Shown piece by piece: positions 2,497 through 61,499 of a stretch of 64,000 nt of DNA (position 1 is its first letter; each line of letters starts with the position of its first letter). The notes beneath the pieces are model-generated. The model was not told the DNA's origin and searched no databases. It was given only the letters and a program-made list of their open reading frames with translations. This DNA is from Eledone cirrhosa (lineage: Eukaryota): assembly GCA_964016885.1 (NCBI GenBank), contig OZ024763.1:19964001-20028000 (forward strand). The letters run 5' to 3'. The translations under genes and the position numbers were made by a program.

Positions 2497-5405
2497 GGCT
2501 CCAGAATCCTGGAATTCTGTGACGCAAATAACCTAACTATCTGTAACACTAACTTCAAAAAAGGAGACAATCGCTTGATCACCTATAGATCGGGGGAACA
2601 CACAAGCCAGGTAGATTAAATCCTTACCAGGAGACGTGACAGAGTGTCTGTTGTAAACACTAAATCCCTCCCCCATGAAGAATGCATGTGTCAACATAGA
2701 CTCATAATTAGCGACCTCATAGTCAGGACGAGACGTATTCGACAACAGAAGAGGACTATCCTCAGGAGAAAAATATGGAAATTAAAGGACCCCACAGCCA
2801 GTCATAAATTTAAAAGCATATTACTTGATGCTTTTGATAGTAAGGAAGAGCAGTTAGAGTCGTACAATATAGAGGAACAGTGGGAATTCCTGAAAGTTAA
2901 CCTGCTGAAGGCGACAGATGAAACCTGTGGCTGGAGCAGGCCTATAAGCAGGAGGAGAGTAACTTGGTGGTGGAACAGTAAGGTGGAGAGGTCAATCAAG
3001 GCCAAAAAGCAGGCTTGGAAAGTATGGCGGGATGGGGGAAGTAGAGAAGACTATCAAGTGGCCAGGAGGGAAGCTAGGAGACAAGTGTACTTCGCAAGAA
3101 GGGAAGCAGAGGAAAGAAAGTTCAAGCATGTTCTACAACGCGAGGACCAAAAACGTGAGGTGTTCAGGATTGCTCGGCAATGTGTCAAGGAAAACAGTGA
3201 TATTGTCGGGTAGAAGTGTGTCCTAAATGATGATGGTGTACTTGCCATCACTGATGCTGATAAGAAGGTAGCTTGGAAGTGTCACTACGAAAGGCTACTA
3301 AATGAGGAGAATAATTGGGAGAAAGACAGTCTCCCCCACATCGACCCAATAGAGGGACCAGCAGTGTTAGTCGAAGGTAGTATAATAAGTAAGGCGACCA
3401 AAGACATGAAGACGGGCAAGGCGGCCGGGCCTTCGGAAATAGTTGCCGAAATGCTGAAAGCATCTGGAACGGTGGGACACACTATGGTCACCCGGATAGT
3501 AAACCAAGTCATACAGAATGGGGTCGTTCCGAAGGACTGGCACAGCAGCATCATCATTAACTGCCACAAGGGTAAAGGTGATGCCCTAGATAGGGAAAAC
3601 TATAGAGGCATTAAATTAATTGACCAGGTCATGAAGGTCACAGAAAAAGTAATAGCGCAACTAATCAGAGAGCGAATTGATCTAGACGAAATGCAGTTCG
3701 GGTTTGTGTCAGGTAAAAGTACAACAGACGCTCTTTTCATTGTACGACAACTACAGGAGAAGTACCTAGCTAAAAGTAAACCCCTATACTTAGCTTTTGT
3801 TGACTTGGAGAAAGCCTTTGACAGAGTACCCGCTCGATTATCTGGTGGGCCCTTAGAAAACTAGGTGTTGATGAATGGCTTGTGAGAGCTATACAAGCCA
3901 TGTATAAAGAAACAGTCAGCAACGTTAGAATTAACAACGAATATAGTGAAGAGTTTAGCGTAAAAGTTGGTGTTCATCAGGGCTCCGTCCTTAGCCCCCT
4001 ACTATTTATCATTGCCCTTCAGGCTATAAAATAGGAGTTCAAGACCGGCTGCTCATGGGAATTCCTATATGCAGATGATCTAACGCTCATAGCTAAATCA
4101 ATGGCTGAACTAGAGAAGAAATTCCAAACATGGAAGCATGGCCTAGAATCAAAAGGCCTTAAAGTTAACTTGTCTAAGACTAAAGTTCTAGTTTGTAGGA
4201 AGGAAAATAGGGCACCGGTCCCATCTGGGAAATGGCCATGCTCAGTGTGTAGGAAAGGAGTAGGTAGAAACTCCATTTTATGTCCTAAATGCAAAGTATG
4301 GGTACATAAAAGATGTAGTGGGATCACAGGTAAGCTAACTAAGAATATAGATTTTATATGTGGCCCGTGCTCTGGTGCAATAAGTAGCAGCAAGTGCCCA
4401 CAAAATACTAACTCATTCCATGGCACAGATGGTTCTATAGAAATAGTGGACAGCTTCCGTTACATGGGTGACAAAATCAGCAGTGGGGGAGGGTGCTCTG
4501 AAAGTACAGTAGCTAGAGTCAGAACGGGATGGAAAAAGTCCAGAGAACTTATACCACTATTGGCCGCTAAAGGGTTCTCTCTAAAAATGAAAGGCAGGCT
4601 GTATGATGCCTGCATACGAACAGCAATGTTACATGGCAGTGAGACCTGGGCATTGTGTGCAGAGGATATACGCAGACTGGAGAGAAACGAAGCTTGCATG
4701 CTCCGCTGGATGTGTAATAGTAATATACGTGAACGGCAAAGCAAAAACAAACTAAGGGAGAAATTAGAAATAAGAGGGATCAGATGTTGTTTACTCGAGA
4801 GAAGACTACGTTGGTATGGTCACGTGATGCGCATGAAAGACGACAGCTGTATAAAAAAGTGCAGGGCAATAAAACTAGACGGTAGCCACGGAGTAGGCAG
4901 ACCCAGAAAAACCTGGGACGACTTGATAAATTCCAACCACACACACACTTACACCTCTCCAAGACAATGTCACTGGACCGAGATCTTTGGCGCTACACAG
5001 TAATAGAGAAGACCCGCCTTACCTAAGTGCAAAGTGAAACCTACTACAGTCAGTAGGCACCTCTAACAAAATACACCCCATCCCACTACCCCCACTTCAT
5101 CCACACCACCCCTTTCAATGTAAAGTTATGTTGGTACCACAACATCCAGCCCGAAACAAACGAGGTAGTGTAGTGTCACGACAAAAAAACACACAGTCCA
5201 CGCTGTAATGTGGCCATGTAGGTAACACGGTAAAAACCTCCCAGTTCCACACTGTAAATGTGGTTGCTGTTAGGAAGGGCATCCAGCTGTAGAAAACCCG
5301 CCAGACAGTCCTATGCGAGCAAGACAACCACTCTTGCCTCAAGTGGGAAAACTCCCGTCCAAACCCATGCGAGCGTGGAATATGGACATTAAATGATGAT
5401 GATGA
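2497..5405 (+). mobile_element. RTE-clade LINE, 5' truncated and degenerate
   Basis: APE C-terminus (QHRLII), WWWN, RT motifs (KAAGPSEI, QFGFVSGKST, FVDLEKAFDRVP, YADDL), PHD-like CxxC insert, RLRWYGHV..GRPRKTW, (GAT)n tail. Contains stops and frameshifts. Confidence 0.93.
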
Positions 5406-11638: not shown

Positions 11639-12990
11639 TTTTCTCTTTCTCTTAATTTCGAGTATATTCTTTTGACCGGCCACCTTCCTGGTGGCAAGGT
11701 TGTAAAAGAAAAGAAATTGTCATCCCTTGAATCGCAAGAATGTTTTGCAAATTTTGAAGGTGCCAGCTATCGCAGCCATTTGTAGACTATGAATTAGGGA
11801 GCTGCTCTTTTTGTCCGCAAATCCAAGTTCAGTCATACTTTGGTCCAAGCGGGTTGGTATATAAGCCGTAGCTGCAATAATGATGGGTATGAAGCTAAAG
11901 GTGTATCTTGGATACTGGATTTGTAAACTCCTCATCAATGGTCCGTAGATGTCCTCCTTCTCCTATATTTTTCTGACAACGTTTACATCAAGTGGGCAGC
12001 TGATCTCCACAACAGAACACGTTTTCAATGTGTGGTCCCAAACAACAATATCAGGCCGGTTGTGCTTTAATTTGGTGGCAGTTTTTATTTTCAGGTTCCA
12101 CCAGTATTCCTTAGTGCCATCTGTCTCAATATATTCTTCCTCGTTTGTTGTTAATTTTGTTTTCCGAAGTGTGTTCCAGATGGTTCTAGCTATCCCATCG
12201 TGTCTCATGGGGAGGTAGTAGCGAGATGACATTCTTTCGCAGCTGGCAACAATGTGGCTTACATCCTCGATCTTTGTTTTACATAGCCTACATTTATTGT
12301 CAGCTGCTGGCCCTCCCCTTTTGTGCAGCAGATATTTGGTAGGGAGTTCTTGTTCCTGTATTGCATAGAGATATCCCTCAAGGTGTGATGTCATAAACTT
12401 GTCGGAACTCCATGCCAGGCTTTTTGAGTGGTTTATCCCCTCTATGGTCTGTGTTTTACGTCTCAAGTATCCATGCACAACTTTTTCTGTAAATTGGTCA
12501 ATTTTTTCATCTTGTTTGAACATTGAATAGAATCTTCCGATTTCTCTGGGTGAGAGATTTATATCAGGCTTTATTCCATATCTCTCCTCCAGATCAGTGG
12601 CTATTCTAATGATATTTTTTTTTTCATGCTCATAAACCTGGGCAAGATGGTTGCCAACCTTTTTCCTCTGTTGAAGGTGTTGCTTCAGTGTTACTATCCA
12701 GGTCTCATATGTTGTTAATATGGATTTTAGACCCCGGCCACCTTCCTTGCATGAGAAGTATAGCCTATCCACATCACCATTGATGTTAAAGTTCCCAGTA
12801 ACACTGAGAAGTTTGCGAGTTCTAACATCCATCTCACTTAGTTCTTGCAATGACCAGTTCAGCAGGCCAAATGTTGGCGTTAGAATTGGCACAGCATAAG
12901 TATTGTGGGCAATGTATTTGTTGTACGCTGACAGTTCTGATGACCATATTTTCTTTACTCTTCTGAGGTATTCAGTTCTGGTTCTCTCCT
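11639..12990 (-). mobile_element. R4/Dong-like non-LTR retrotransposon 3' part (restriction-like endonuclease)
   Basis: RLY..KEGGRGL, HG.., AIQEQ, CCHC CRLC..ED.SHIVASC, RHD, RPDIVV..VEISCP. Both ends abut (TATG)n. Confidence 0.9.
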
Positions 12991-13038
12991 TATTTATGGG
13001 TATGTATGTATGTATGTATGTATGTATGTATGTATGTC

Positions 13039-22845: not shown

Positions 22846-25548
22846 AAGAAATGGAAAAATAATATACATAATACCAAAAATAGGACTAAATACATAACGA
22901 AACCAAATATAATATCACGACTAAAAGTTCATCAAGCGAACACCGACAGGAATATAAATCCTGAACAGAGAAAAATCCATTTTTTAACGTCAGGACAACA
23001 AAAACCGGAAAAAGAAAAACTCCAGGAGGAAACATACCCAAAACAACTGTACACGTAGATCCTAAAATAATTAATTTATCCAAAAGAGATCTTGACAATG
23101 ATGAAATGCAAATTCTGTCAAAAGGACTGAAATTCACACCGACTCCAACAGTCAACCACCAAGAACTGAAGGAGGATACCCAAGAATTCTGTCGAAAATT
23201 ACGTCTTGTAGAATTCTTCGCTGATAAAAGTAATGAGAGTGATGAATCACTAGTAAAGAATAAATCAAATTTCACTCCGCCAAAAGGAAGAAATATCTAT
23301 CTCGACCAATACATTGACATCCTGTCTAAATTTCCTCTTAGACGTAATACTAATGTTAGGCCAAACATTAACAAATCAGAAATGTCTGCACTTAAACGTA
23401 TACAAAATGATAAAACAATAATAAATAAACAAGCAGATAAAGGGGGTGCAGTTGTTATAATGGATGCTGAATACTACAAGGATTTGGTTGAGGAACAACT
23501 GAAAGACACAACATTCTATCATGAAATACCGTCAAATATAGACCACAACATCATGAAGAAGATCAACAACCTGGCTTCAAAATACCACAACTCACCTACT
23601 GATAAGGAAATAGACTACATCACCAATTTTGAGCCGAAACCCAGCAACCTGTATGGCCTACCGAAAGTTCATAAGTCAAAAGAAATACAACTGGCAGTAA
23701 GAGAACAAAACAGTGAGTACATTAAATTACTACACCCAAAAGACTTAAAACTTAGACCTATTATAGCTGGTCCAACATGCCCCACCCACCGTCTAAGCAA
23801 TTTTGTTGACATTATTTTGAAACCACTATGTATTCACATACCCAGTTTCATCCGGGATGATATCGACTTCCTGTCCCATCTTCCCAAAACCACGGAAACG
23901 AATTCACTTCTACTTAGTTTTGATGTGGTAAGCCTTTACACCAACATTACACATGATTTACGAATAAAGGCGGTTAAATACTGGGTGGAAAAACATAGAG
24001 AAGTGATTCCCATCAGATTCACAGCGCCATTTATATTAGACGCAGTTAAACTTATTCTGGACACTGTCTTCTTCAATGAAAAGAATTACATCCAAATTAG
24101 AGGCACAGCGATGGGAACGAAGTTTGCTCCCGTTTACGTGAACTCTGTAATGGGATACTTAGAACAACAAATCTACCAAGAAATAGAGGGAAAATATAGT
24201 ACTGACTTTAGAAAGTACATTGAAAAATCTTGGAAGAGATACCTTGACGACTGTTTCATCATCTGGACAGAATCTCTAGATACTCTGGATGAGTTCAATA
24301 TCCTCCTGAATAACCTACACCCATCTCTCCAATTCACAAAAGAGATGAGTAGGATCAAATTACCATTCCTAGATATAATGATAATCAAAAACGACACCAC
24401 CATTACCACGGATATATATTATAAACATACAGACACCCATCAATATCTGAATTTTAAGTCGTGCCATCCACCTCATACAAAACGCAACATCCCATACTAG
24501 CCAGAAGAATTTGTACCACTGTAGAAGATACGAATACCAGGTACAAACGCCTAACAGAACTAAGAGAATTTTTGCTCAAACAAAAATACCCATCTCTACT
24601 TATAGAAAATGGCATACAGCGGGCTATAAAAATACCTATACAACAACTTAGGACAACCCAAAGAAGAAGAAACCAAGAACTGGTCATACCATTTATAATG
24701 ACACACAACCCATGTCACCAGAATATCTTCAACACTGCCAAAGCAAACCTACCGATCATTGCTCAAAGTAATGAATTAAAAGACTTAATCACAGATCGAT
24801 CTTTGACTCTTAGTAAAAGACAGCCAAAAAATTTGAAGCAATTACTAACAAAATCAAAGTTTGACTTTAACAACAAAGACCAATCATTCACTGTATCTAA
24901 ATGCAATGATAGGCGATGCGGCACATGTCAATCCATACACGCCGGTCAATATATGAAAACAAAAACTGGAAAAATATTCCCAAATGCAAATATGAACTGC
25001 AAAAGCAGAAATCTAATTTACTGCATTAAATGCCCGAATTGTGAAGAACTATATGTCGGTCAAACTGGAAATGCACTATCAGAACGTGCACGGGTACACC
25101 GTCAGCAAATCAGAGACCCAAATGTCCGTCAGATACCCCTAAGTAACCATCTAGCAACATGTGGTCAGGAAATATTTATAATATTCCCATTCTACAAATT
25201 ACACAGCTCAAGTGAAATCAAGAGAAAAATCAAAGAAAATAATTTTTTCGATAAATTCAAACCCAAGCTAAATGAACAATAATAATTGTTTCTACTTTAG
25301 GCACAAGGCCAACAATTACCCAGTGCATTACTGGTACTTTATTTTATCGACCCCGTAAATGCTTAGGGGTATTACTTCTACTATGACTATGACTACGACC
25401 ATGTCGACTACGAGCACTAACAACAACAACAACAATAATAATAATAATAAAAGTGATGTTGATGATGATGATTACTAGAAAATGCTATTTTCACCATTTC
25501 TAAAAATAGCAAAACAATTGATGCTTTGGATAGGATCAATTAGTGGTC
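22846..25548 (+). mobile_element. Penelope-like retroelement (Neptune/Naiad-like), RT plus GIY-YIG, frameshifted
   Basis: KGLKFTPTP, ADKGGAVV, YGLPKVHK, RPII, SFDVVSLYTNI, GTAMGT, RYLDD, SCHPPH, CxxRRCxxC linker, IYCI..YVGQT..R..H. ORFs 23106-24500 and 24461-25282. Confidence 0.93.
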
Positions 25549-26568
25549 GGATACACGCATCATACAGTCTGCCTTTCATTTTGAGGGAGAAGCCTTTTGC
25601 AGCTAGCAGTGGTAGTAGTTCCCTAAACTTCTTCCATCCCGTCCTTACCCTAGTTATTGTACTTTCTGAACACCCACCTCCGCTGCTAATTCGGTCACCT
25701 AGGTAGCAGAAGCTGTCTACTGTTTCTACAGAGCCCTCCCAGAGATTGGTGGTACTTGTTTTCATTGGCTGTTTGCTGCTTGCTGTCCCAGCACAGCTGC
25801 TGCATGTGAAGCCTACATTCTTAATTAAGCTTCCTGAGATCCCGCTACATCTCTTGTGTACCCATTGTTTGCATTTGGGGCAGAGAATCGAGTTCCTACC
25901 TACACCTTTCCTACATACTGAGCAAGGCCATTTCCCTGAGGGGATCTGGGTTCTGTTTTCTCGTCTACTTACAAGGACCTTAGTCTTTGTCATGTTGACT
26001 TTGAGACCCTTTCTTTCTAGTCCCTGCTTCCAAGTTTGGAATTTCTTCTCTAGTTCTACCTTAGATTCAGCTATAAGTGCGAGGTCATCAGCATACAGGA
26101 GTTCCCATGGGCATCCGGTCTTAAACTCCTCCGTTATTGCCTGCAGGACTATGATGAACAGGAGGAGGCTAAGAACAGAGCCCTGGTGGACCCCAACCTG
26201 TACGCTAAATTCCTCGCTATACTCATTGCTAATCCTAACTTTGCTGACTGCTCCCCTATACATGGCTTGTAGCGCTTTCACAAGCCATTCATCTACTCCT
26301 AGTTTTCTAAGAGCCCACCAGATTACAGCATGTGGAACTCTGTCAAAGGCTTTCTAGAGATTGACGAATGCCAGGTAGAGTGGCTTACTTTTAGCTAGGT
26401 ACTTTTCCTGTAACTGCCTGACAAAGAAGAGGGCATCAGTGGTGCCTCTTCCTGGTACAAACCCAAATTGCATTTCGTCTAGTTTTACCCGGTCCCTAAT
26501 CAACTGTGCTATAACTCTTTCTGTTACTTTCATGACCTGGTCCATCAGCTTTATACCTCTATAGTTTC
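25549..26568 (-). mobile_element. RTE LINE RT fragment
   Basis: QFGFVPGRGTTDA, GVHQGSVLS, YADDL, PHD-like insert. Confidence 0.9.
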
Positions 26569-26605
26569 TATGTTTCCTCCTATATATATATATATATATA
26601 TATAT

Positions 26606-28680
26606 AGGAGGAATAATTGTAACTGTAGAAATAAATATATAAATCGAATAATTGTAACTGTAGAAATAAATCCAAATGTCCGTTAAATAACAACTGCTTA
26701 GCTAAAAATGTAGTTTATAATTGTAATGTTAAAACGAATTTAAATTCATTTAATTATGTCGGTTCCACCTCCACAGAGTTTAAATCCCGCTTCAATAATC
26801 ATAAAAATTCTTTTACAGATCCAAACAAAAAAATCTTCAACTTCGCTATCTAGCCTATTATGGGACCTAAAACGAGATAATGTTGAATATTCGCTGATTT
26901 GGAATATTATTTCAAAAGCTACTCCTTTTAATTCCTCTTCAGAAAATTGCGATCTTTGTATAGAGGAAATATTCTTTATATTAAAGACCAAAAATTCCCT
27001 TAATTTAAGGAATAATTTATTCAGTTGCTGCAGACATAGATTGAACTCAACGTTTAAATACAAATATAAATTTAAAATGTAGTATAATTAATTAAGTAAT
27101 TTGGTTAATATATGAAACCTGTCGATAAATCATTAGATTCCTTCACCTTTTTCATTTTCTTTGGTTAAGTACTCAAGTATAAATAAATTTTCTTCCTAAA
27201 TATAAATATAAATATAAATATAATAAACTATTCTAGAAAAGTTTATCCTTTCAATATCTTGAGTAAAATATACGTAAGATAAATTTCTATACTAAATATA
27301 TTAAACATATTATTTTAACTTAAAATATTCTATAATATTTTAAAATATTTTAATATTTTGATATTTGTAGAATTCATTTGTTTTTAGGTTATATTGATAT
27401 AATTATATTTCCAATATATAATCCTTTTGTATTTTATATACTCAATTGTACTATGTAATATATTGATGTATACTTATCTCTATACGACTAAGTATGTATG
27501 TATGTGTATTAACATACATATGCATGTGTTGTATGCATTTTTATGAATATATGTCTGTCTGTGTATATGCATGAGTGACGCGTGTTTACCAATTGGGTGA
27601 AGATGCACACACATGTTTATATATGTATATGTAAGAATTGTGTGTGTACATGTACATGTGTACCCATGCAATTTGATTGCAGATATGCATAATTTAACAG
27701 CCATAATTTAACAGCCATAAATGCATGAAAGTTAATCCTATATATTTATATATATATACTAAAAAATTTTATTTAATAACACAAGGAATATATAGCAGTA
27801 ATAATAAAAAAAATCATTTATCCTTTGTACGTATATATTATATGCCGAAGTAGATATAGTGTGTATTTTCTGAGTGTGTGTGTATATATATATATTTATG
27901 TATTTTTGCGTATATGTACGTGCTATATGATAGGTAATTTCTCTAGCAATATATATATTTCGTAATGTTTAAATTCCAATTTTTAATATATTGATCTCAA
28001 TTTTTAAACTAAATATCTAATCATAACTAAACAATGATTAATTTCTCATATTATATATGTATATTCCATTCATGAATATTAATATTTCTAATTTTATTTA
28101 TTCATTTCATCTCAATTGTTAGCTCAACTTAATATGACATGCCTTAAGGTTTTCGTTCTCTCCCCTCTCTCTATCTCTATATTTCTCTCTCTCGATTTTT
28201 TCTCTCTGTCTGGTGGTTTGATATCTCTCTGTTGTTTTTTCTCTGTTTTCTTGTTTTCTTTTTTCTTTCTTCTTTTTCTTTATTTATCTCTCCCTTTCTT
28301 TTCTCCACTTTTTCTCCACTTTTATCTCTCTCGGTTTCTCTCTCTCTCCGTCTTTTTCCTTCTCCTTAACACAACAACTTACTAAAATAAACAAACCACT
28401 ATCCTGATGTCTTCCAAAAGTAACGGTCGCATTTTCAAAAGGGTACGTCAATGTTTATTTATAAAACTGGTATATATTGTATTTTGTCTGATGAAGGCAT
28501 ACCATAATTTAACATGGTATCCTTGAAATATGTATAATGAAATAAATATGGTTTTATAAATATAGTTTCCATATATTAATATCGTATATTTACTCCAAAT
28601 ACTTGTCGAGTGCTTTATATCAGTTATAAAAATATTTGCTTGTTGTATCCCAACAATTTAAATAGAACTTTTGCATATAG

Positions 28681-32357: not shown

Positions 32358-32522
32358 AGCCACGAAAGCCACTGAACTGCGACGGTACCGATTATTAGAA
32401 CACATCTACAACGACGTGAGGTACATCAACTCAGCTGAAGTGCAGAAGTTTGGTTATAACAACATAACTACGGAGGAACTTTACACATCTGTGGCCCACC
32501 AGAAGGAGGATATGATTATATC
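32358..32522 (+). CDS. DEG/ENaC (ASIC-like) channel, internal exon A (finger region)
   Basis: Acceptor ttttccacag and donor gtgagt. Phase 2-2 open frame (R)ATKATELRRYRLLEHIYNDVRYINSAEVQKFGYNNITTEELYTSVAHQKEDMII(S). The HxxEDMxxSC motif is completed by the next exon. Confidence 0.85.
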
Positions 32523-35624: not shown

Positions 35625-36026
35625 GTTAGCAGTATCGGTAGAGCATCAAACAACATGCTTTATGGCATATAGTTATGGCCCTTTACATTCTGAGTTCAAA
35701 TCCCATCGAGGTTAACTTTGCCTTTCATCCTTACAGGGGTCGATAAAATAAAGTACCAGTCACGCACTGGGTCCGATTTAATCGACTTTCCCCGCTCCCA
35801 AAATTGCTGGCCTTGTGCCTATATAAGAAACCATTATTGTGGATTGGCAGTATCGGTAGAGGGTCGGACGCCATGCTTTCCAGCATAGTTACGTCCCTTT
35901 ACGATCTGAGTTCAAATCCCGCCGAGGTTAATTTTGCCTTTCATCCTTACGGGGTCGATAAAATAAAGTACCAGTAATGCACTGGGTAATTGCTGGCCTT
36001 GTGCCAAAAGTAGAAACAATTATTAT
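35625..36026 (+). mobile_element. Two stacked SINE family A copies
   Basis: Two consecutive bodies, the second ending agaaacaattattat ~40 nt before exon B. Confidence 0.85.
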
Positions 36027-36064
36027 CATTATTCCCATTTCTCTCTTCCCACCCTCTTCCTCAG

Positions 36065-36189
36065 GTGTATGTGGGGTTCAGAGGTATGTAGTGACAAGAA
36101 CTTCAAGCAAACCTACACAGACCATGGCGTTTGTTATACCTACAGCCAACGACACGAGGAACATGGTTACAGAAAAGTTCTTTCAACAG
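36065..36189 (+). CDS. DEG/ENaC channel exon B
   Basis: Acceptor ctcttcctcag and donor gtatgt. (S)CMWGSEVCSDKNFKQTYTDHGVCYTYSQRHEEHGYRKVLST(G) matches the CxWxGxxC...FxxxxTxxGxCYTFN signature. Phase-compatible with exons A and C. Confidence 0.92.
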
Positions 36190-36190
36190 G

Positions 36191-37395
36191 TATGTAACAA
36201 TGTTTATTTAATATGTAACAATGTTTATTTAATATGTAACAATGTTTATTTAATATGTAACAATCATTATTTAATATGTAACAATGTTTATTTAATATGT
36301 AACAATCATTATTTAATATGTAACAATGTTTATTTAATATGTAACAATCATTATTTAATATGTAACAATGTTTATTTAATATGTAACAATGTTTATTTAA
36401 TATGTAACAATGTTTATTTAATATGTAACAATCATTATTTAATATGTAACAATGTTTATTTAATATGTAACAATGTTTATTTAATATGTAACAATCATTA
36501 TTTAATATGTAACAATGTTTATTTAATATGTAACAATCATTATTTAATATGTAACAATGTTTATTTAATATGTAACAATCATTATTTAATATGTAACAAT
36601 CTTTATTTAATATGTAACAATCTTTATTTAATATGTAACACTGTTTATTTAATATGTAACAATGTTTATTTAATATGTAACAATGTTTATTTAATATGTA
36701 ACGATGATTATTTAATATGTAACGATGATTATTTAATATGTAACGATGATTATTTAATATGTAACGATGATTATTTAATATGTAACAATGTTTATTTAAT
36801 ATGTAACGATGATTATTTAATATGTAACAATGTTTATTTAATATGTAACAATATTTATTTAATATGTAACAATATTTATTTAACCCTTTAGCATTTAAAC
36901 TGGCTGTATCCAGCCAGAATTCTCTCACCCCTTTCTGTTCGAACCAGCCATAAATGGCTGCTTATACTTATGTTAAAGTATTGTTCTCAAAATAAATAAT
37001 ATCAAAATCTCATAGATTCGATATTATGTGAAATAATTATGTAAGATAAAGCCTTTACCGTGAAAATATAATAGTAAATATAGAGTAATGTAAATGCTAA
37101 GGGGTTCATATGTAACAAATGTTTATTTAATATGTAACAATTTTTATTTAATATGTTACAATGTTTATTTAATGTTATGATGTTATTTAATATGTAACAA
37201 TGTTTATTTAATATGTAATAACGCTTACATAATATGTAATGATGTTTATTTAATACGTAACAAACCTTATTTGATATGTAACAAAGCTGACATAATATGT
37301 AACAATGCTTTTTAAATATGTAATGAGGCTTATATAATTTATAATATATCTTGCATAATATGTAACACTGTTTTCTTTAATATGTAACAAAGCTT
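36191..37395. repeat. 21-bp minisatellite (tatgtaacaatgtttatttaa): ~33 conserved units, then degenerate
   Basis: Directly visible. Starts within the exon B donor and is interrupted by a MITE at 36884-37104. Confidence 0.95.
36884..37104. mobile_element. piggyBac-like MITE (second copy ~42420-42836, with a SINE A insert)
   Basis: ttaa|CCCTTTAGCATTTA ... TAAATGCTAAGGGG|ttca, inserted at a TTAA of the minisatellite unit. Confidence 0.65.
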
Positions 37396-43300: not shown

Positions 43301-43482
43301 GAGCTGAAAATGGTTTGCGTTTAATCCTGAATGTTGAACAATATGAATACATGCCAGGCCCTAACAATGCTGCGGGTATCAAAATTTTGATGCACAATGA
43401 AGATGAGTTTCCAAGAGTTCATGAACTCGGCCTAGCCACTCCGACAGGAGCCCATGCTTTTGTGGGCTTAAAAATAATTTCT
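43301..43482 (+). CDS. DEG/ENaC channel exon C (beta-ball/palm)
   Basis: Acceptor tctctttcag and donor gtaagt. GAENGLRLILNVEQYEYMPGPNNAAGIKILMHNEDEFPRVHELGLATPTGAHAFVGLKIIS parallels ASIC GxGNGLEIMLDIQQDEYLP...AGIKVQIHSQDEPP..DQLGFGVAPGFQTFV. Confidence 0.95.
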
Positions 43483-45318: not shown

Positions 45319-45472
45319 CTAAGCAATCTCCCCAAACCAAGAGGACTTTGCAGTACACGACAATTAGAATATTTTTCAACATACACCCCAGAAAATTGCG
45401 ATATTGATTGTTTCACAATTAGATTGAATGAAAAATGTCACTGTCGGCTGTTTTACATGCCTCATAAAAACG
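45319..45472 (+). CDS. DEG/ENaC channel exon D (thumb, Cys-rich)
   Basis: Acceptor tctcttatctag and donor gtaagc. LSNLPKPRGLCSTRQLEYFSTYTPENCDIDCFTIRLNEKCHCRLFYMPHKN(G) follows the LPxPxGxC...YxxxxCxIDC...CxCR..MP pattern. Confidence 0.95.
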
Positions 45473-46142: not shown

Positions 46143-47357
46143 CATCATCATCATCATCATCGTTTAACGTCCATATTCCACGCTTGCATGGGTTTGGGCG
46201 GGAGTTTTCCCACTTGAGGCAAGAGTGGTTGTCTTGCTCGCATAGGACTGTCTGGCGGGTTTTCTACGGCTGGATGCCCTTCCTAACACCAACCACGTTT
46301 ACAGTGTGGACTGGGAGGTTTTTACCGTGTTACCTACACGGCCACATTACAGCGTGGACTGTATGTTTTTTTGTTGTGACACCTACACGACCTCATTTGT
46401 TTCGGGCTGGATGTTGTGGTACCAACATAACTTTACATTGAAAGGGTGGATGGGGTGGGGGTAGTGGGACGGGGGTGTATTTTGTTAGAGATGCCTACTG
46501 ACTGTAGTAGGTTTCACTTTGTACTTAGGTAAGGCGGGTCTTCTCTATTACTGTGTAGCACCAAAGATCTCGGTCCAGTGACATTGTTTTGGAGAGGTGT
46601 AAGTGTGTGAGGTCGGAATTTATCAAGTCGTCCCAGGTTTTTCTGGGTCTGCCTACTCCGTGGCTACCGTCTAGTTTTATTGCCCTGCAGTTTTTTAAAC
46701 AGCTGTTGTCTTTCATGCGCATCACGTGACCATACCAACGTAGTCTTCTCTCGAGTAAACAACATCTGATCCCTCTTATTTCTAATTTTTCCCTTAGTTC
46801 GTTTATGCTTTGCCGTTCACGTATATTACTATTACATATCCAGCGGAGCATGCAAGCTTCGTTCCTCTCCAGTCTGCGTATATCCTCTGCACACAATGCC
46901 CAGGTCTCACTGCCATGCAACATTGATGTTCGTATGCAGGCATCATACAGCCTGCCTTTCATTTTTAGGGAGAACCCTTTAGCGGCTAATAGTGGTATAA
47001 GCTCTCTGAACCTTTTCCATCCAGTTCTGACTCTAGCTACTGTACTTTCAGAGCACCCTCCCACACTGCTGATTTTGTCACCCAGGTAACGGAAGCTGTC
47101 CACTATTTCTATAGAACCATCTGTGCTAGTATTCTGCGTGCACTTGCTGCTACTTATTGCACCAGAGCACCGGCCACATATAAAATCTATGTTCTTAGTT
47201 AGCTTACCTGTGATCCACTACATCTTTTATGCACCCATACTTTGCATTTGGGACATAAAATGGAGTTTCTACCTACTCCTTTCCTACACACTGAGCATGG
47301 CCATTTCCCGGGTGGGACCGGTGCCCTATTTTCCTTCCTACAAACTAGAACTTTAGT

Positions 47358-48976: not shown

Positions 48977-49033
48977 GTTACCCATCAGTCTGTACACTAG
49001 AACAACATCAAGATTGTTATGTACCACAGAAAG
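48977..49033 (+). CDS. DEG/ENaC channel exon E (thumb, 57 bp)
   Basis: Acceptor attcccgttag and donor gtatgt. GYPSVCTLEQHQDCYVPQK resembles ASIC PYCTPEQYKEC. Phase 1-1. Confidence 0.9.
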
Positions 49034-51621: not shown

Positions 51622-54600
51622 ATAATGTAGGAGGTGAGTTTTATTGTAGTACAATAAAGCAATGCAGATATCGGATAAGAAGCACTCTACAGTTTGTAGG
51701 ACTGGAGTATACATAATATATATAAGAACAAAAATTATAAATTAACTAAAATTATAAAAAATCTTAAATTCAAGAGATACCCTTACAAAGGACAAGAGCA
51801 CCTTGTAAATCTCAAGAACACAATTTCAAACCTAAATTCCTCAAAAAATGTTTTAGTCCACTCTGACAAAACCAATAACTTATATGGTATTTCCAAGGAT
51901 AATTATAACAACCTTATCCTAAAGGAACTTAGGAAAAAATATCGTAAAATCAACCATGATAATTTAGAATACATAAACTTTGAAGCCTCTGAGATTATGT
52001 CAAAACTTGGCATTGAAAAAAAGACCGAACCATTCCTCCCAAGAACTCCGAGTATAAATCTCAAGGATCACAAAAACAATTTTCGCACTGAACTACCTGT
52101 TAGATTAATCGCCCCCTCTAAATCAGATCTGGGGGTTGTTAGTAAAGCCATCTTGGATAGAATTATCCCACAGGTTCGTTCTAATTGCTCTTCTTTGAAC
52201 CTAAATTTATGGTTTGGTACTTCTGAAGTGATTAGCTGGTTCAACAAATTGAATAATAAAAACAAACTAAAATTTGTTCAATTTGATATTGCCAGCTACT
52301 ATTCCTCCATTTCGCCTTCACTTCTCAATAATGCTCTATCTTTCGCACTTAAATATTCTGACATCACCACAGATGAACTTCACATCATTCTCACCGCACG
52401 TAAAACCATCCTAGAGTTCAACAACGAATATTGGACCAGAGCCGATACCTCTAACAACTTCGACATCACAATGGGAGCATCCGATTCATCCCAATTGACA
52501 GATTTAATTGGTATCTTTATTTTGAACTCTTTGAGTCGGAAAATTCCTCAACTTCGCGGTGGAATTTATCGTGACGATGGACTCTTTACTATCTTAAATT
52601 GCAACATAGTTAACCTTAATATTATTAAGAACAATATACGTAATCTCTTTAACCAACATAACCTAAAAATTGAATTTGATAACAGCATCAAACTAGCTAA
52701 TTTCTTGGATGTATCTCTTAATCTTGACACTGGCCTATTCCCCTTACCCTAAAAACAATGAGAACCTAAATTATGTTAACTTTAAATCTAACCATCCTAC
52801 TAATATTAAGAATGCTATAGTTAGTAATATTGGAAAAAGAATATCTAGCCTATCTTCTAATAAAAATATCTTTGATGCTAACGCCAATTACTATAATAAC
52901 GCGCTTTCTAAAGCCGGCTATCCTGATAAAATCAAATATAGTAAAGAAACAAATTCTAGAAGAACTTACAGTAGAATAATTAATCATGATCATTCCAATA
53001 ACTTTAATAAAAGACCTAGATACAAAAACATAATCTGGTATAATGCTCCTTTCTCCATCTCTATTAATAACAATATTCCTAAATTATTCTTTAGTGCCTT
53101 AAATAAATGCTTCCCTCCCTCACATATCTATAGTAAAATATTTAACAAACACACCATAAAATTTTCCTATTCGACATCAACCAACATTTCCAACATTATC
53201 TCTAAACACAACAATAAAATACTAAATACTAAATCTCTTCCTTCCAACACTGAATATCATAATAATAGTAATAGTACTCCCGACGTCATTGTTAACTCTA
53301 GGCTAATTTCTGCAAACCCAAATACAACGTCAAACACAACTTCGCTAAATGTTCTTAATCCCATTCTAAATCAAGAAACTATTATTCCTATCGCAAATAA
53401 CTTCTCCAATCCAATTCCTTCTATAGATAACACTAGGTCACTCGTTAATAATCTCTCTAATCGCAATTGCAATTGCCCTGTTAAAAATAAATGTCCTCTC
53501 AACAACCATTGTCTTGATAAAAACTTAATCTACGAATGTAAAGTTATAACTGACACCAATTCCTTCACCTATTTTGGCTCCACTTCCACCTCTTTTAAAG
53601 CTCGTCTTTATAACCATCATTCGTCTTTTAAATACAAACTTAAAAGAACCAACACGGCTCTCTCAGAACTCATATGGTTCTTCAAAGACAAAAATATTAA
53701 ATATAGCATCTTTTGGAAGAAGGTTTCTTCTGCGTCTCCATACTTGAACAGTTCTCTATCCAAAATTTGCAATCTCTGTCTAAATGAAAAATTTACCATT
53801 ATCTCTAATTTAGATTCTATAATAAATAGACGCACTGACTTGTTTTCCATCTGCTTGCATAAATTCCACAAAACATTCCACAAAGTATACAGCTAATATC
53901 CAAATCTTTATCAATTTAGAATCTTTTTCTCAAAGGCACATATATATATATATACACTTCTTTAAAAATATACCCATCTTTCTACCTTATTTCAAAGGTT
54001 ATTATACATTCTATAATACTTGTTACTCATTCTATATCGCTCCTATTTATCACTTCCCTTTCTTCTCTTTTTCTTTTAATGTCTAACCCCTAATCTGTAC
54101 CTTTTCTCACTGTTGCCTAACATAGAATCAATTATTACATAATACAATACATTCTTACTCTATATCACCTTGTAAAAATCCTTCGTAAACAAACATTTTT
54201 TTGACGTTAGATTATTCATCCTCAATTCATTATTTTTTTCTCCCTTTCATCTAACTCATTCATGCTCATCTCACAATATATCCTTACTTAAATTACCTGT
54301 TGTTCTTTTTAATAATACATATCAACATTTTCTTTCCATCGCACATATTATTAAACCCTTAAACATCATTCTTAATACATATTAACTTTTTCTTTTCCAT
54401 CGCACATGTTATTAAACCCTTAAATATTATTCTTAATACATATTAACATTTTCTTTTCATCGCACATATTATTAAACCCCTCAATATACAAACCTTAACT
54501 TTACATTATTTTTCTCTTCGTTAATTTTCAAATTCTTTTAATTTATACATTATCTTCCAACGGTTTTCGACCTCTCTATGTAAAACAATATATCTTTCTC

Positions 54601-56728: not shown

Positions 56729-58347
56729 CAGTGGCCCGCAAAAGTTTACAACACATTAGGAAAAATGCGGTTTCAGGTATTTATAATAAAGTTAGGGTAA
56801 TGAAAATTTAACTACTGTTAGAACATATAATGAGGCATTTAATGATACAATCATATTCTTAAAAAAGATAACAAGGAAATAACTCATGAAGAAAAATCAA
56901 TATTTTTATAACGCAAAAGTTTACAACACATTTATTAAATCATCTCTTAATATTTCGTAGCGTAACCTTTGTTGCTAATTACAGCCTGTGGGCGTTTGGA
57001 GTAGCCTCCTACAAACTTCTTGCATGTTTCTTGGCTAATATTTTTCTATTCTTCACAACAAATTTTCTTTAGTTCAGGGATATTTTGGGGTTTCCTTTTT
57101 TGATTTCTGAGTTTCAGTTCTCTCCACAAATTTTAGATCGGGTTCAGATCTGGACACTGACTTGTCCATTTTAGAACATTTATTCCATTCGTACTTAACC
57201 AAGATTGTGTTAGCTTTGCAGTATGCTCTGGATCATTATCTTGTTGAAAAAACCAACCTGGCTTTAAGCTGAGAGAATGTGCACTTTGATGTAAATTCCT
57301 TTGCAAAATACCTCTATAATAAGCGCCATCCATTCTTCCTTCTATTATTTTAATATTTCCTACTCCTGTGGCACTAAAGCAACCCAAGACAATGATTGAT
57401 CCACCTCCAAATATTACAGTTGGAATAGTATTCTTTGGCGAATATACAGTACCTTTCTTTCTCCAGACTTTTGCCACAGCATTTCGACCAAAAAGTTCAA
57501 TTTTTGTTTCGTCCGACCAAAATACATCTTCCCACAATGACGCAGGTTTGATGAGATGCTCATTTACAAAGTTTAATCAACGAACAACTTGTTTCCTCGT
57601 AAGAAGTGGTGTTTTCCTTGGAGATCTCGAGAAGATATCATATCGACGAAGTGAACGACTAATTGTATCTGTGCTCACTTTTACTCCACTTCCTTCTAGG
57701 TCATCCTGAAGATTTTTAAGAATACACCGGGGTTCGTTGCCAACCTTTCTCATCAATAACCGAGCTGCACATTCCGTTATCTTTCTAGGACGACCAGAAC
57801 TAATTAGAGGACAGATGGAATGATGAGATTTCCAGTGACGAATTATAGTACCTACTGAACTCAAAGGCACATTTAACTGACAAGATATTTTTCTATAACC
57901 AACACCATTTGTATGAAGGTCTACAATGTGTTTACGGACGTCTTGATCAATCAGTTTATTTTTCCCCATATTGTCCATGTTTACAGGACGGTTGTCAATG
58001 TTTACAGGAGGGTTGTCAGACAAATAATGACGTAATGTTTTTAATAGTCCTTAGAAGTTACCTTAAACCTAATCTAGAACATTCTACTGAAATTTAAATC
58101 TGAAATTTTAAGAATTTTCTTGAAAAAAAAGCGATAAATATAGAATGTGTTGTAAACTTTTGCGTTATAAAAATATTGATTTTTCTTCATGAGTTATTTC
58201 CTTGTTATCTTTTTTAAGAATATGATTGTATCATTAAATGCCTCATTATATGTTCTATCAGTAGTTAAATTTTCATTACCCAAACTTTATTAAAAATACC
58301 TAAAACCGCATTTTTCCTAATGTGTTGTAAACTTTTGCGGGGCACTG
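56729..58347 (-). mobile_element. Tc1-family DNA transposon with ~204-bp IR/DR-type TIRs, degenerate transposase
   Basis: TA|CAGTGGCCCGCAAAAGTTTACAACACATT ... AATGTGTTGTAAACTTTTGCGGGGCACTG|TA. Inner repeat cgcaaaagtttacaacacatt. GRPRK, WSDETK, FQQDNDP, PDLNPI motifs with frameshifts and stops. Confidence 0.95.
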
Positions 58348-59492: not shown

Positions 59493-59809
59493 ATATATAT
59501 ATATATATATATAAAATATATATATATACACAGAACATATATATATATATATAAAAATACACACACACATACACACATATATATATAAAATATATACATA
59601 CAGATACGCACACACATATAAAAAAAAATACGCATACATACACATATAAAATACAGATATATATACACATGATACATATATACATATATATATATAAAAT
59701 CAGGTTCAATAAAACATAGTTTAGATGACTCCTAACCAGTAGAGAATCCAGTGGACCATCCACCATAGGGACCACAAACTATGGGTGGTTGTTGTTGTCC
59801 ATTGGTCAT

Positions 59810-59833
59810 TGGTACGGGGTGTAGGGGACCTAC

Positions 59834-59864
<31 letters not shown>

Positions 59865-59915
59865 TATATATATATGTATATATATATATATGTAGGTCCC
59901 CTACACCCCGTACCA
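59810..59915. repeat. Perfect 25-bp inverted repeat around (TA)n
   Basis: tggtacggggtgtaggggacctaca ... tgtaggtcccctacaccccgtacca. Confidence 0.9.
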
Positions 59916-59955
<40 letters not shown>

Positions 59956-59977
59956 TATCTTTTGTTTTATTTTCTAG

Positions 59978-61499
59978 CCAAAATATTGGATTATGTGCGC
60001 AAGTCCTGCGTTTGTCCCGTTCCTTGCAAATCTTTACTGTTTGAGCCAACAGTTTCATATGCCAGCACCTCAACGTACGCCATTGAGACTCTGTTGTCTC
60101 GTATCCTGAGCAGTGGGATCAAGAAGAAGTTTATTCACGCCAAAGAAGTGACCAGTCGTATGCAACTTAAAGTCTTCAACAAAACCAGAGATCTGTTGAA
60201 CAACCTAAAAAACAGCTTTCGCCCGATCAAGAACTTATTCGACGTTGATCTTTCGAATAGAATAGTGGGCCAAATAGATATAATTCATCAGTTGCATAAC
60301 GAAACGAAGACCCATTGGGAAGTGAAACAAAACCTGAATAAATACCAGATATACGTGACTGATAAAAATTTCATCCGTGGTAGAGAAGCTATGGAAGAGA
60401 GGACGCTGAAGTATTTGGGTTTTGATCATATAAGTTTCACTTTCCGAATCGTGGATCAGATTCGAAGCCTTGTTAAACCGGAGATCATTGAGAAAAATCT
60501 GACAGATATTATTTACTTCCTGATCAACAGGGATTGCCAGGAGCATATAGAGAGAAGCGAGAAAGCCCTTAGCAATTACACTCAGTTATTTGAATCCTTT
60601 GTGAATGGAACACCAATTTTTAGATACAGATATATGAAAATTCCCCGTGAACATAACAACCACATTGTACCACGACTGCTCTTCAACAGGTCACTTACTT
60701 ATTCCAGTTATTCAAAAAAATATAGCAGCAAGGTTCCAGTTCATATCAATCAGATTATGTCATTTCTCACTGCATTCATGGAATTGGCAAATTACACCTA
60801 CACCACAGGTAAACTGAATTCAAGTAGATTAGATGAAGTGTCTTTCTTATATAACAAGGCCTGTAAGAACTACAATTTTGCCAAAAGTGCATTCTATTAT
60901 TACTGTGTTGATTGGGCTCTAGAGGAGGTGAAGAAAAAAGAAATTCACTTCCAACAGCTATGGAATAATTATGAAAATGTAGTGAGTGATATAAAGTTAA
61001 ACCTATACAATGTTTATACCTTACTCACTACTCTTCAAAGTAATATAATCACAGATCTGGATGATGGCATTAGGTTAGCTGACAATTATCTCAATAATTT
61101 AATTACAAAGGAACATTTAGCCAGCAAGCTGAATTCACAGAGAACTCATGAAGGTGTGAACAACTTACAGTCCTTCTTTAGTGAAGTACGGTCTCGCGGA
61201 ACTCTACTTTATGACAACTGGAAGAAACTCGCGCAAGCTTCTACTGCTATTTGGAAGTCTATCTTTGACGACAAAGACTGTTTTGCATATTATGAATTCA
61301 CTAACTTGACAGAGTTCTTGCAAGATCCTGATGAAAAAATATTGGACATAGACAGAACCCACGAGGAAATTAGAATGGGGTATGATTTTCGTAATCTCAT
61401 TGGAAACAAGGATCGGATTTTATTTTATGACTTGAAAACCATTCTTCAAGAGATGCAAAACTACCAGAAATCTTTGAAAATAAACAATAATTTTATGAG
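59978..61499 (+). CDS. DEG/ENaC channel exon F (end of thumb, beta10, plus ~460-aa insertion)
   Basis: Acceptor ttttattttctag and donor gtaagt at 61500. 1522-bp stop-free frame starting AKILDYVRKSCVCPVPCKSLLFEPTVSYAS (CxCPxPC...S motif) and ending NNNFM(R), just before the expected beta11/TM2 exon. Confidence 0.92.

Follow-up and report, generated by a model that had tools for sequence, protein, structure and literature searches.

A DEG/ENaC sodium-channel gene of the octopod Eledone cirrhosa encodes an insert of about 456 residues in the knuckle of its extracellular domain, between helices α6 and α7. The insert is contained in one 1522-bp exon, and we regard it as nearly certain that the gene, its splicing, its family and the position of the insert are all real. 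In the AlphaFold2 models the insert very probably forms two stacked four-helix bundles linked by long helices within one chain, giving a predicted tower on the channel. The preliminary description had proposed a helical, extracellular knuckle insert of this kind; splicing, alignment and models agree with that proposal and predict a long stalk. We refer throughout to the window, the 64,000-nucleotide stretch of contig OZ024763.1 that was analyzed.

The gene and its giant exon

The gene has 10 exons (Table 1). A scripted join gives a coding sequence of 2910 nt that encodes 969 aa with zero internal stops. Six exons lie in the window, all with AG/GT borders, and they join in frame. Five of them were located by tblastn with the Octopus vulgaris protein P0001, the closest named relative, which is 72% identical over exon 8. 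Exon 8 has an AG acceptor and a GTAAGT donor and lies within a 535-codon stop-free frame; 478 codons follow the YAS motif. The 969-aa protein has the HG motif at aa 93, TM1, ten thumb cysteines at aa 331 to 407, and TM2 with DIGGSMG at 930 followed by the GAS belt. The insert has four further cysteines. In a Pfam scan, PF00858 (ASC) was above the cut-off on two exons. The in-frame exons with a full 10-Cys thumb and the long open frame past YAS, both noticed earlier, were thus recovered.

Table 1. Features of the channel gene and its insert (window positions unless contig C24 is named; aa numbers count from the start of exon 8)
Feature	Position	Strand	Evidence or location
Coding exon 1	contig C24 near 19,890,800		upstream of window
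Coding exon 2	contig C24 near 19,954,400		upstream of window
Coding exon 3 (finger region)	32358..32522	+	tblastn with O. vulgaris P0001; AG/GT borders and frame
Coding exon 4	36065..36189	+	tblastn with P0001; AG/GT borders and frame
Coding exon 5 (β-ball/palm)	43301..43482	+	Pfam ASC E 8e-12; tblastn with P0001; borders and frame
Coding exon 6 (thumb)	45319..45472	+	Pfam ASC E 6e-8; tblastn with P0001; borders and frame
Coding exon 7 (thumb, 57 bp)	48977..49033	+	tblastn with P0001; 3' end matches the loose end spliced to exon 8 in the X3 contig
Coding exon 8 (1522 bp): thumb end, β10, knuckle α6, whole insert, α7 start	59978..61499	+	frame, X3 contig, alignment, models
Helical insert, about 456 aa (aa 45-500), between knuckle α6 and α7	60112..61479, borders approximate	+	split alignment to ASIC1/2; models
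First stalk helix (aa 47-61), conserved A54 89%, E56 84%, R60 83%	60118..60162	+	column frequencies, model
Predicted long helix A (85 aa, ~128 Å), ascending (direction inferred)	60166..60420	+	model
Predicted distal four-helix bundle (about aa 120-320)	60337..60939	+	structure-alignment ranges, spacings
Most conserved insert motif KNF-x-R-x-x-x-AMEERT (F131 96%, R133 85%, E140 92%, R141 90%)	60364..60405	+	alignment
Conserved N-glycosylation sequon N199-Y-T201	60574..60582	+	sequon within 3 columns in 105/124 rows
Predicted long helix B (91 aa, ~136 Å), descending (direction inferred)	60820..61092	+	model
Helices C and D, which close the predicted basal bundle and lead back to α7; include W425, Y438	61138..61473	+	model, alignment
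β11 exon (exon 9)	contig C24 20,038,607-698		downstream of window
TM2 exon (exon 10)	contig C24 20,040,402-526		downstream of window

Exon 8 is spliced whole, from exon 7 through the β11 exon to the TM2 exon. Contig 17 of run X3 (2851 nt) spans 59976 to 61499, and its loose ends are the flanking exon 7 and the β11 exon. In the X3 contig with this length (2851 nt) and depth, the β11 exon is joined GT..AG to the TM2 exon, so that one contig carries the splices from exon 7 to the TM2 exon. Positions 1 to 117, 118 to 211 and 210 to 1733 of the X3 record tile without gaps, and within exon 8 the reads differ from the window at three letters, all synonymous. The X3 contig contains the 1522-bp exon joined to its neighbors, and in these contigs an internal donor that skips most of the exon, a possibility raised in the preliminary description, was not used. 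Five donor-like motifs lie inside the exon. Runs X1, X2 and X4 are unspliced and read through its intron flanks. X1 to X4 come from one study, the library type of X3 is not on record, and contigs lose rare splice forms; a minor isoform that skips exon 8 would be compatible with these contigs.

The end of exon 8 also left a trace in the protein databases. Fifty-four of 90 fragments of at least 400 aa without TM2 terminate at F-x-R/K, where read-through of the exon 8 donor gives a stop, which suggests that the 3' border of the giant exon is conserved. The public O. vulgaris model P0001 stops exactly at this donor, without β11 or TM2. Because read-through there gives a stop, P0001 is probably a truncated annotation.

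Repeats lie close to several of these exons. Just past the window end is a 10.2-kb tandem array with a 79-bp unit, 129 acceptor-like copies and 95% matches (G000:C24:20028447-20038640; L004:447-10000 plus L005:1-640). The unit consists of a splice acceptor and the first ~33 bases of the β11 exon. The last copy alone is followed by a donor. A single copy is used in the X3 contig, so that roughly 128 decoy acceptors are skipped, probably through exon definition. An inverted repeat at 59809-59917, with arms of ~30 bp flanking a (TA)n tract, lies some 60 bp upstream of the exon 8 acceptor. A tandem repeat of ~21 bp at 35962-36888 begins soon after exon 4, and one of its frames reads as repeated ICNNVYL. 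The introns hold broken mobile-element frames (2620-3861, 11966-13036, 24458-26701, 46528-47217, 51700-52749 and 57136-58050), which we take to resemble LINE reverse transcriptases, Penelope-type elements and a Tc1/mariner transposase.

Conservation and predicted structure of the insert

Alignment to solved structures breaks after knuckle α6 and resumes at α7 and β11. The stretch between the last thumb Cys and the TM2 Asp measures 523 aa here versus 67 in the ASIC2 chain 6l6p, which gives the size of the insert. The same distance is 517 to 536 aa in 31 proteins matched by a motif pattern. Spacing inside the insert is also regular: R60 to Y438 measures 369 to 391 aa in all 87 rows having both positions, and F131 to F324 has a median of 192 aa. 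The Y438-F505 spacing is bimodal, at 65 to 79 aa in 71 of 121 rows and 100 to 124 aa in 50 of 121, the latter with about 45 extra residues in the basal tier.

AlphaFold2 modeled exon 8, using 128 sequences, with a pLDDT of 93.7 and a pTM of 0.83. The predicted helices include one of 85 residues (aa 63 to 147), one of 91 residues (aa 281 to 371), and shorter ones. An 850-aa Argonauta orthologue, P0005, gave the ASC core and the insert in one model (pLDDT 91.2, pTM 0.74). Its core has the palm, thumb and finger fold and matched ASIC1 in Foldseek (E 2.4e-24, TM ~0.6 by target). VIA-align ranges on the insert model form two groups, at about aa 120 to 320 and from about 60-75 through 480-505, and each matches four-helix bundles, for example 8gl3 (Z 13.4, rmsd 3.5, 177 aligned) and 9u78 (Z 9.9, rmsd 2.2, 117 aligned). 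The best match, 8gl3, is a designed bundle, and all the bundle matches are generic. The 506-residue model was aligned whole, undivided into domains, and the absence of a specific match does not show a new fold. The earlier expectation of a coiled-coil-like helical insert was therefore right about the helices, but the prediction is of two stacked four-helix bundles and not of a simple coiled coil. The length, direction and packing of the tower are putative; at 1.5 Å per residue it would be 13 to 15 nm long.

Other searches with the insert returned little. Foldseek against the PDB gave no match at E≤0.001, a profile search of PDB sequences returned only ASC cores and weak helical matches, and the ESM Atlas had nothing at or above 0.9 for the insert alone. 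A three-copy prediction of aa 62 to 374 scored 0.00, with the alignment unused and the chain's own fold uncertain, and has no bearing either way on trimer packing. No Pfam family passes for exon 8 (best E 0.09). Exon 8 has no membrane-like stretch (best 19-residue hydropathy, 1.1), and we rejected an extra membrane helix. It also has no furin-type R-x-x-R site, only KK pairs.

Conservation is uneven along the exon. Mean top-residue frequency peaks at aa 128 to 147 (0.54), 47 to 61 (0.47) and 210 to 250 (0.42), versus 0.24 to 0.25 in the lower long helices. In the alignment of insert homologues, F131, R133, E140, R141, A196, N199 and G210 are conserved at 80% or more. Identity to non-cephalopod molluscs and nemerteans is 22 to 32% for the insert versus 44 to 53% for the core, so the insert diverges faster. 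All nine N-x-S/T sequons and four cysteines counted in the preliminary description are present, but only one sequon is strongly conserved (105/124; the next two, 66/127 and 53/125). Three of the cysteines are poorly conserved (6/124, 10/128 and 5/125), and the fourth is found in 55/128 rows. A disulfide-stapled insert was rejected because the cysteines are mostly unconserved. By helix register, the conserved residues and the conserved sequon would probably meet near the base of the distal bundle.

Family spread and the nematode channel DEL-10

A genome search gave three matches, each beside ASC exons: the C24 copy studied here and further copies on C3 (74%) and C4 (27%). The giant exons of both paralogues are intact (G000:C3:72047325-72048851, minus strand; C4:177181225-177182718, minus strand); for the C3 paralogue, downstream exons were not found within 20 kb. 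In a FastTree tree of 124 of 128 rows (four with fewer than 280 aligned residues were dropped), the C3 and C24 copies pair with each other (support 0.99) to the exclusion of O. vulgaris P0001. For the C4 copy, the nearest sequence is O. bimaculoides P0047 (65%). The insert is under purifying selection: against the C3 paralogue, dN/dS is 0.18 (Nei-Gojobori, 474 codons, dS 0.86; 0.14 to 0.26 by quarter). Stops in the homologues or a dN/dS near 1, which would have spoken against a functional insert, did not occur. A transposon origin was rejected because no Pfam family passed, the only three genome matches lie by ASC exons, and dN/dS is low; the earlier statement that the insert has no transposable-element motifs holds. 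Elsewhere in the genome, ASC-like matches in single long open frames (G000:C23:268850-269773, plus strand, 639 aa; C17:43820214-43820831, minus strand, 268 aa) suggest intron-poor DEG/ENaC genes.

An exhaustive search with the insert found 148 homologous clusters at E≤0.001. All 20 long clusters that were looked up came from cephalopods, gastropods, bivalves, nemerteans (Lineus, Tubulanus) or Capitella. Of the 26 matches of at least 600 aa, 25 show an ASC core motif; the other, P0030, carries the cysteines of the thumb end. A further profile search returned eight proteins, five of them named molluscan, and probed the range outside Lophotrochozoa poorly; one for longer relatives, covering 1680 to 4795 aa only, found none. 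Ten shorter fragments branch deeply in the tree, and the annelid-like label for their branch rests on Capitella alone. The alignments indicate that the insert is an old feature of an orphan subfamily of molluscs, nemerteans and one annelid. A cephalopod-specific or purely local novelty was rejected on the same homologues.

Members of this family are public and already in a phylogeny. In the alignment of PMC10507113, the Aplysia member P0004 and the O. bimaculoides member P0047 appear with their inserts cut away. Several Platynereis and Owenia sequences of similar type are trimmed there in the same way, so that the insert status of these annelid sequences is not visible. The four Platynereis channels (508 to 614 aa) cloned in bioRxiv 261990 are FaNaC relatives and fall outside the insert family. 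The supplements of PMC9949801 gave no match in a motif search. In the literature searched, whose coverage left out most subscription papers, we found no description of a knuckle insert and no account of the tower, so the concern that it was an already characterized subfamily feature did not materialize.

A shorter version is probably present in C. elegans DEL-10 (T28D9.7, NP_495302.3, 1069 aa), which also has a large insert between the last thumb Cys and β11. By hand count in the PMC9822975 supplement, Cys412 is 415 aa from the TM2 Asp827, corresponding to an insert of about 350 aa versus 456 here. By eye, A489, E491 and R495 fit A54, E56 and R60 (positions conserved at 83 to 89%) and the hydrophobic rhythm of the stalk helix; a D-x5-YY motif, a return helix and a Cys just before the TM2 Asp serve as further anchors. 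The YY-to-F spacing of 112 aa falls in the family class of 110 to 119, found in 43 of 121 rows and commonest among the longer members. However, R495 to Y681 is 186 aa versus 369 to 391 (about 378) here, a deficit of about 190 aa, or about the distal bundle (192 aa). The KNF..EERT motif is not visible in DEL-10, and its acidic pre-stalk linker is about 39 aa longer.

The two ESM Atlas clusters nearest to a full-length relative (0.96 and 0.95) consist of long, mostly nematode ASC proteins, one of them auto-named del-10, and several mollusc and nemertean members carry the same automatic name in databases. No nematode protein was recognized among the sequence matches of the insert searches. The comparison thus combines anchors read by eye against column frequencies, automatic names and a language-model neighbor list. 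On this reading DEL-10 would keep the basal tier without the distal tier of about 190 aa. Because the deficit equals the distal bundle, we suggest that the tower has one tier in nematodes but two in lophotrochozoans. The two inserts probably share a common origin. A basal tier shared with DEL-10 would date to the protostome ancestor, which we consider its likely age.

Possible functions and comparison with known systems

We tentatively suggest, at somewhat less than even confidence, that the tower is a tether that grips an extracellular-matrix or neighboring-cell partner and transmits the tension to the channel gate. Since the knuckle forms the apex in solved DEG/ENaC relatives, the tower would point away from the membrane. 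R133, E140, R141, N199, T201 and R223 may make up a single putative binding patch close to the base of the distal bundle. Binding or load at this patch would shift α6 and α7, which are continuous with the palm strands β10 and β11-12 leading to TM2. The near-constant R60-Y438 and Cys-to-Asp lengths, the conserved glycosylated polar patch, the α6/α7 continuity and the absence of the proton residues are all consistent with a tether. N-glycans in the palm and knuckle of α-ENaC are proposed to act as shear-force tethers (PMC6955349), which offers a precedent by analogy. On this view the channel might give no current until its partner is bound, and this would agree with the lack of DEL-10 activation in oocytes: PMC10424705 reports no pH-dependent current, though a figure legend lists amiloride block at pH 7.4, and the stimulus of DEL-10 is called unknown (PMC9822975).

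Several points stand against the tether. A constant length is expected of any long helical bundle, and the length is not fixed throughout, given the extra basal-tier residues in 50 of 121 rows and the shorter insert of DEL-10. The FaNaC1 knuckle helix α6 is relatively static during gating (PMC11026163), which by analogy would speak against a simple piston from knuckle to gate. The faster divergence of the insert than of the core also counts against the tether. A soluble-ligand site would account for the conserved polar patch equally well.

Such a site is the basis of the main rival reading, in which the tower is a receptor whose patch binds a soluble ligand, be it a peptide, a small molecule or a secreted protein, and signals to the pore in a manner convergent with bacterial four-helix and helical-bimodular (HBM) chemoreceptor domains; we consider it rather unlikely, but worth weighing. 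The conserved Arg, Glu and Asn residues are concentrated in one region, HBM domains have two ligand-binding modules (PMC5126104), and peptide gating arose in FaNaC/WaNaC and HyNaC channels (PMC10507113). Chemoreceptor sensor domains appear among the generic matches (4k0d, Z 10.9, rmsd 2.8, 143 aligned; 6s18, Z 10.2, rmsd 3.1, 143 aligned), and the McpZ sensor domain is the top Foldseek row (E 0.008, TM 0.15 to 0.20). However, such Z-scores are typical of any helical bundle and lie below those of designed bundles, and identities are 4 to 9%. The known ligands of DEG/ENaC channels bind to the normal ectodomain and need no tower, and a conserved glycan beside the patch would fit a tether better than a small pocket.

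That the tower merely positions or adheres the channel, for example across a synaptic or epithelial cleft, with gating through the usual finger and thumb sites, appears improbable. Together with the ectodomain, the tower would extend about 20 nm or further, close to the width of a synaptic cleft at common values for ectodomain height and cleft width. A fixed tower length would suit this role, as would a static knuckle as a good anchor point (PMC11026163). Nevertheless, the DEL-10 insert is about 190 aa shorter, and the Pfam, PDB profile and Foldseek searches recognized no known adhesion fold. We find it very doubtful that the insert is an assembly or auto-inhibitory cap, acting in subunit choice, trafficking or block until cleavage: the three insert-bearing paralogues could form heteromers, and ENaC is opened through cleavage of inhibitory tracts (PMC8791634), but exon 8 lacks a furin-type site and a 14-nm two-tier structure would exceed the needs of such roles. 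An artefact, whether an intron that is read through, a transposon that was exapted or a neutral insertion that is usually spliced out via an internal donor, is almost certainly not the explanation, since the internal donor-like motifs and the early stop of P0001 are outweighed by whole-exon splicing in a contig that also holds TM2, the low dN/dS, the 148 homologous clusters, the lack of a Pfam pass and the confident fold.

The tether reading can be extended, though the extended version as a whole is unlikely. It would describe a protostome-wide DEG/ENaC class with a built-in tether, one tier in DEL-10 and two in lophotrochozoans, with a reach of about 20 nm, a conserved glycosylated patch that binds matrix or an opposing cell, and a pore gated by force. 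If true, this would be a force-from-filament channel carrying its own filament, and it would explain the orphan status of DEL-10. A tethered gating mechanism for DEG/ENaCs was proposed long ago and has proved difficult to demonstrate in heterologous cells (PMC10148893). A single exon encodes nearly all of the tower, which can therefore be removed, reduced by a tier or exchanged, and this makes the tether question directly testable; C. elegans genetics could be used as well if the DEL-10 link holds.

The bundles themselves resemble many others. Up-down four-helix bundles of bacterial 4HB/HBM sensors, talin, vinculin and apoE superpose on either tier (Z 9 to 11, rmsd ~3 Å, 120 to 165 aligned), but at 4 to 12% identity and no better than designed bundles; the arrangement is alike, and these scores give no sign of homology. 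For the HBM/4HB sensor domains alone the values against the insert model are Z 9 to 11, rmsd 2.8 to 4.0 and 143 to 164 aligned, generic for bundles, and for McpZ they are Z 9.1, rmsd 11.7 and 242 aligned.

The channel core, in contrast, has clear relatives. Among solved structures, ASIC1/2 match best (E ~1e-68; ASIC2 4e-68), followed by BASIC (7e-60), Aplysia FaNaC (6e-35) and ENaC β (9e-34). With ASIC1/2 (PDB 2qts, 6l6p) the octopod channel shares the HG motif, the ten thumb cysteines and the GAS belt (best sequence E 4e-68, fold E 2e-24), but its knuckle is longer by the 456 residues of the insert. The ASIC proton-gating wrist His and palm Lys are named in PMC10507113. Here the His73/74 position is Val and the Lys211/212 position is Ser or Thr, and the acidic loop before β7 is shorter. 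The YPH of chicken ASIC1, whose His we take to be H73 of mouse ASIC1, aligns to WPV in the relative P0002, and the Eledone gene also has WPV; K211 of mouse ASIC1 is Thr in P0002 and Ser or Thr in the Eledone gene. Because the wrist His and palm Lys are replaced, the alignment identifies the channel as a clade-A relative that is not an ASIC by these two residues. The earlier label "ASIC-like" is thus apt for the clade only, in which ASIC1/2 are the closest core match. The residue just before the TM2 Asp, at the TM2 exon border (L005:2402), is Gly in ASIC1 but Cys here, as it is in DEL-10 and in the full-length relatives inspected; this is presumably the degenerin site.

Sampled molluscs are reported to be without ASICs (PMC9949801), and the insert-bearing genes are candidate sensory or synaptic channels in these animals. 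FaNaC/WaNaC membership does not fit, with E values of 6e-35 and 1e-11 to FaNaCs versus 4e-68 to ASIC2. BASIC/ASIC5, FaNaC and ENaC share the superfamily fold, but the insert region is unmatched by any solved chain, and FaNaC and ENaC belong to clade B and are far more distant. DEG/ENaC subunits are described as having one ectodomain plan, with variation mostly in the finger, and the ectodomain is about 300 residues in ASICs (PMC9949801). Against that plan, a conserved knuckle module that more than doubles the ectodomain is a new architecture for DEG/ENaC channels; it occurs in molluscs, nemerteans and at least one annelid, and probably also in nematodes.
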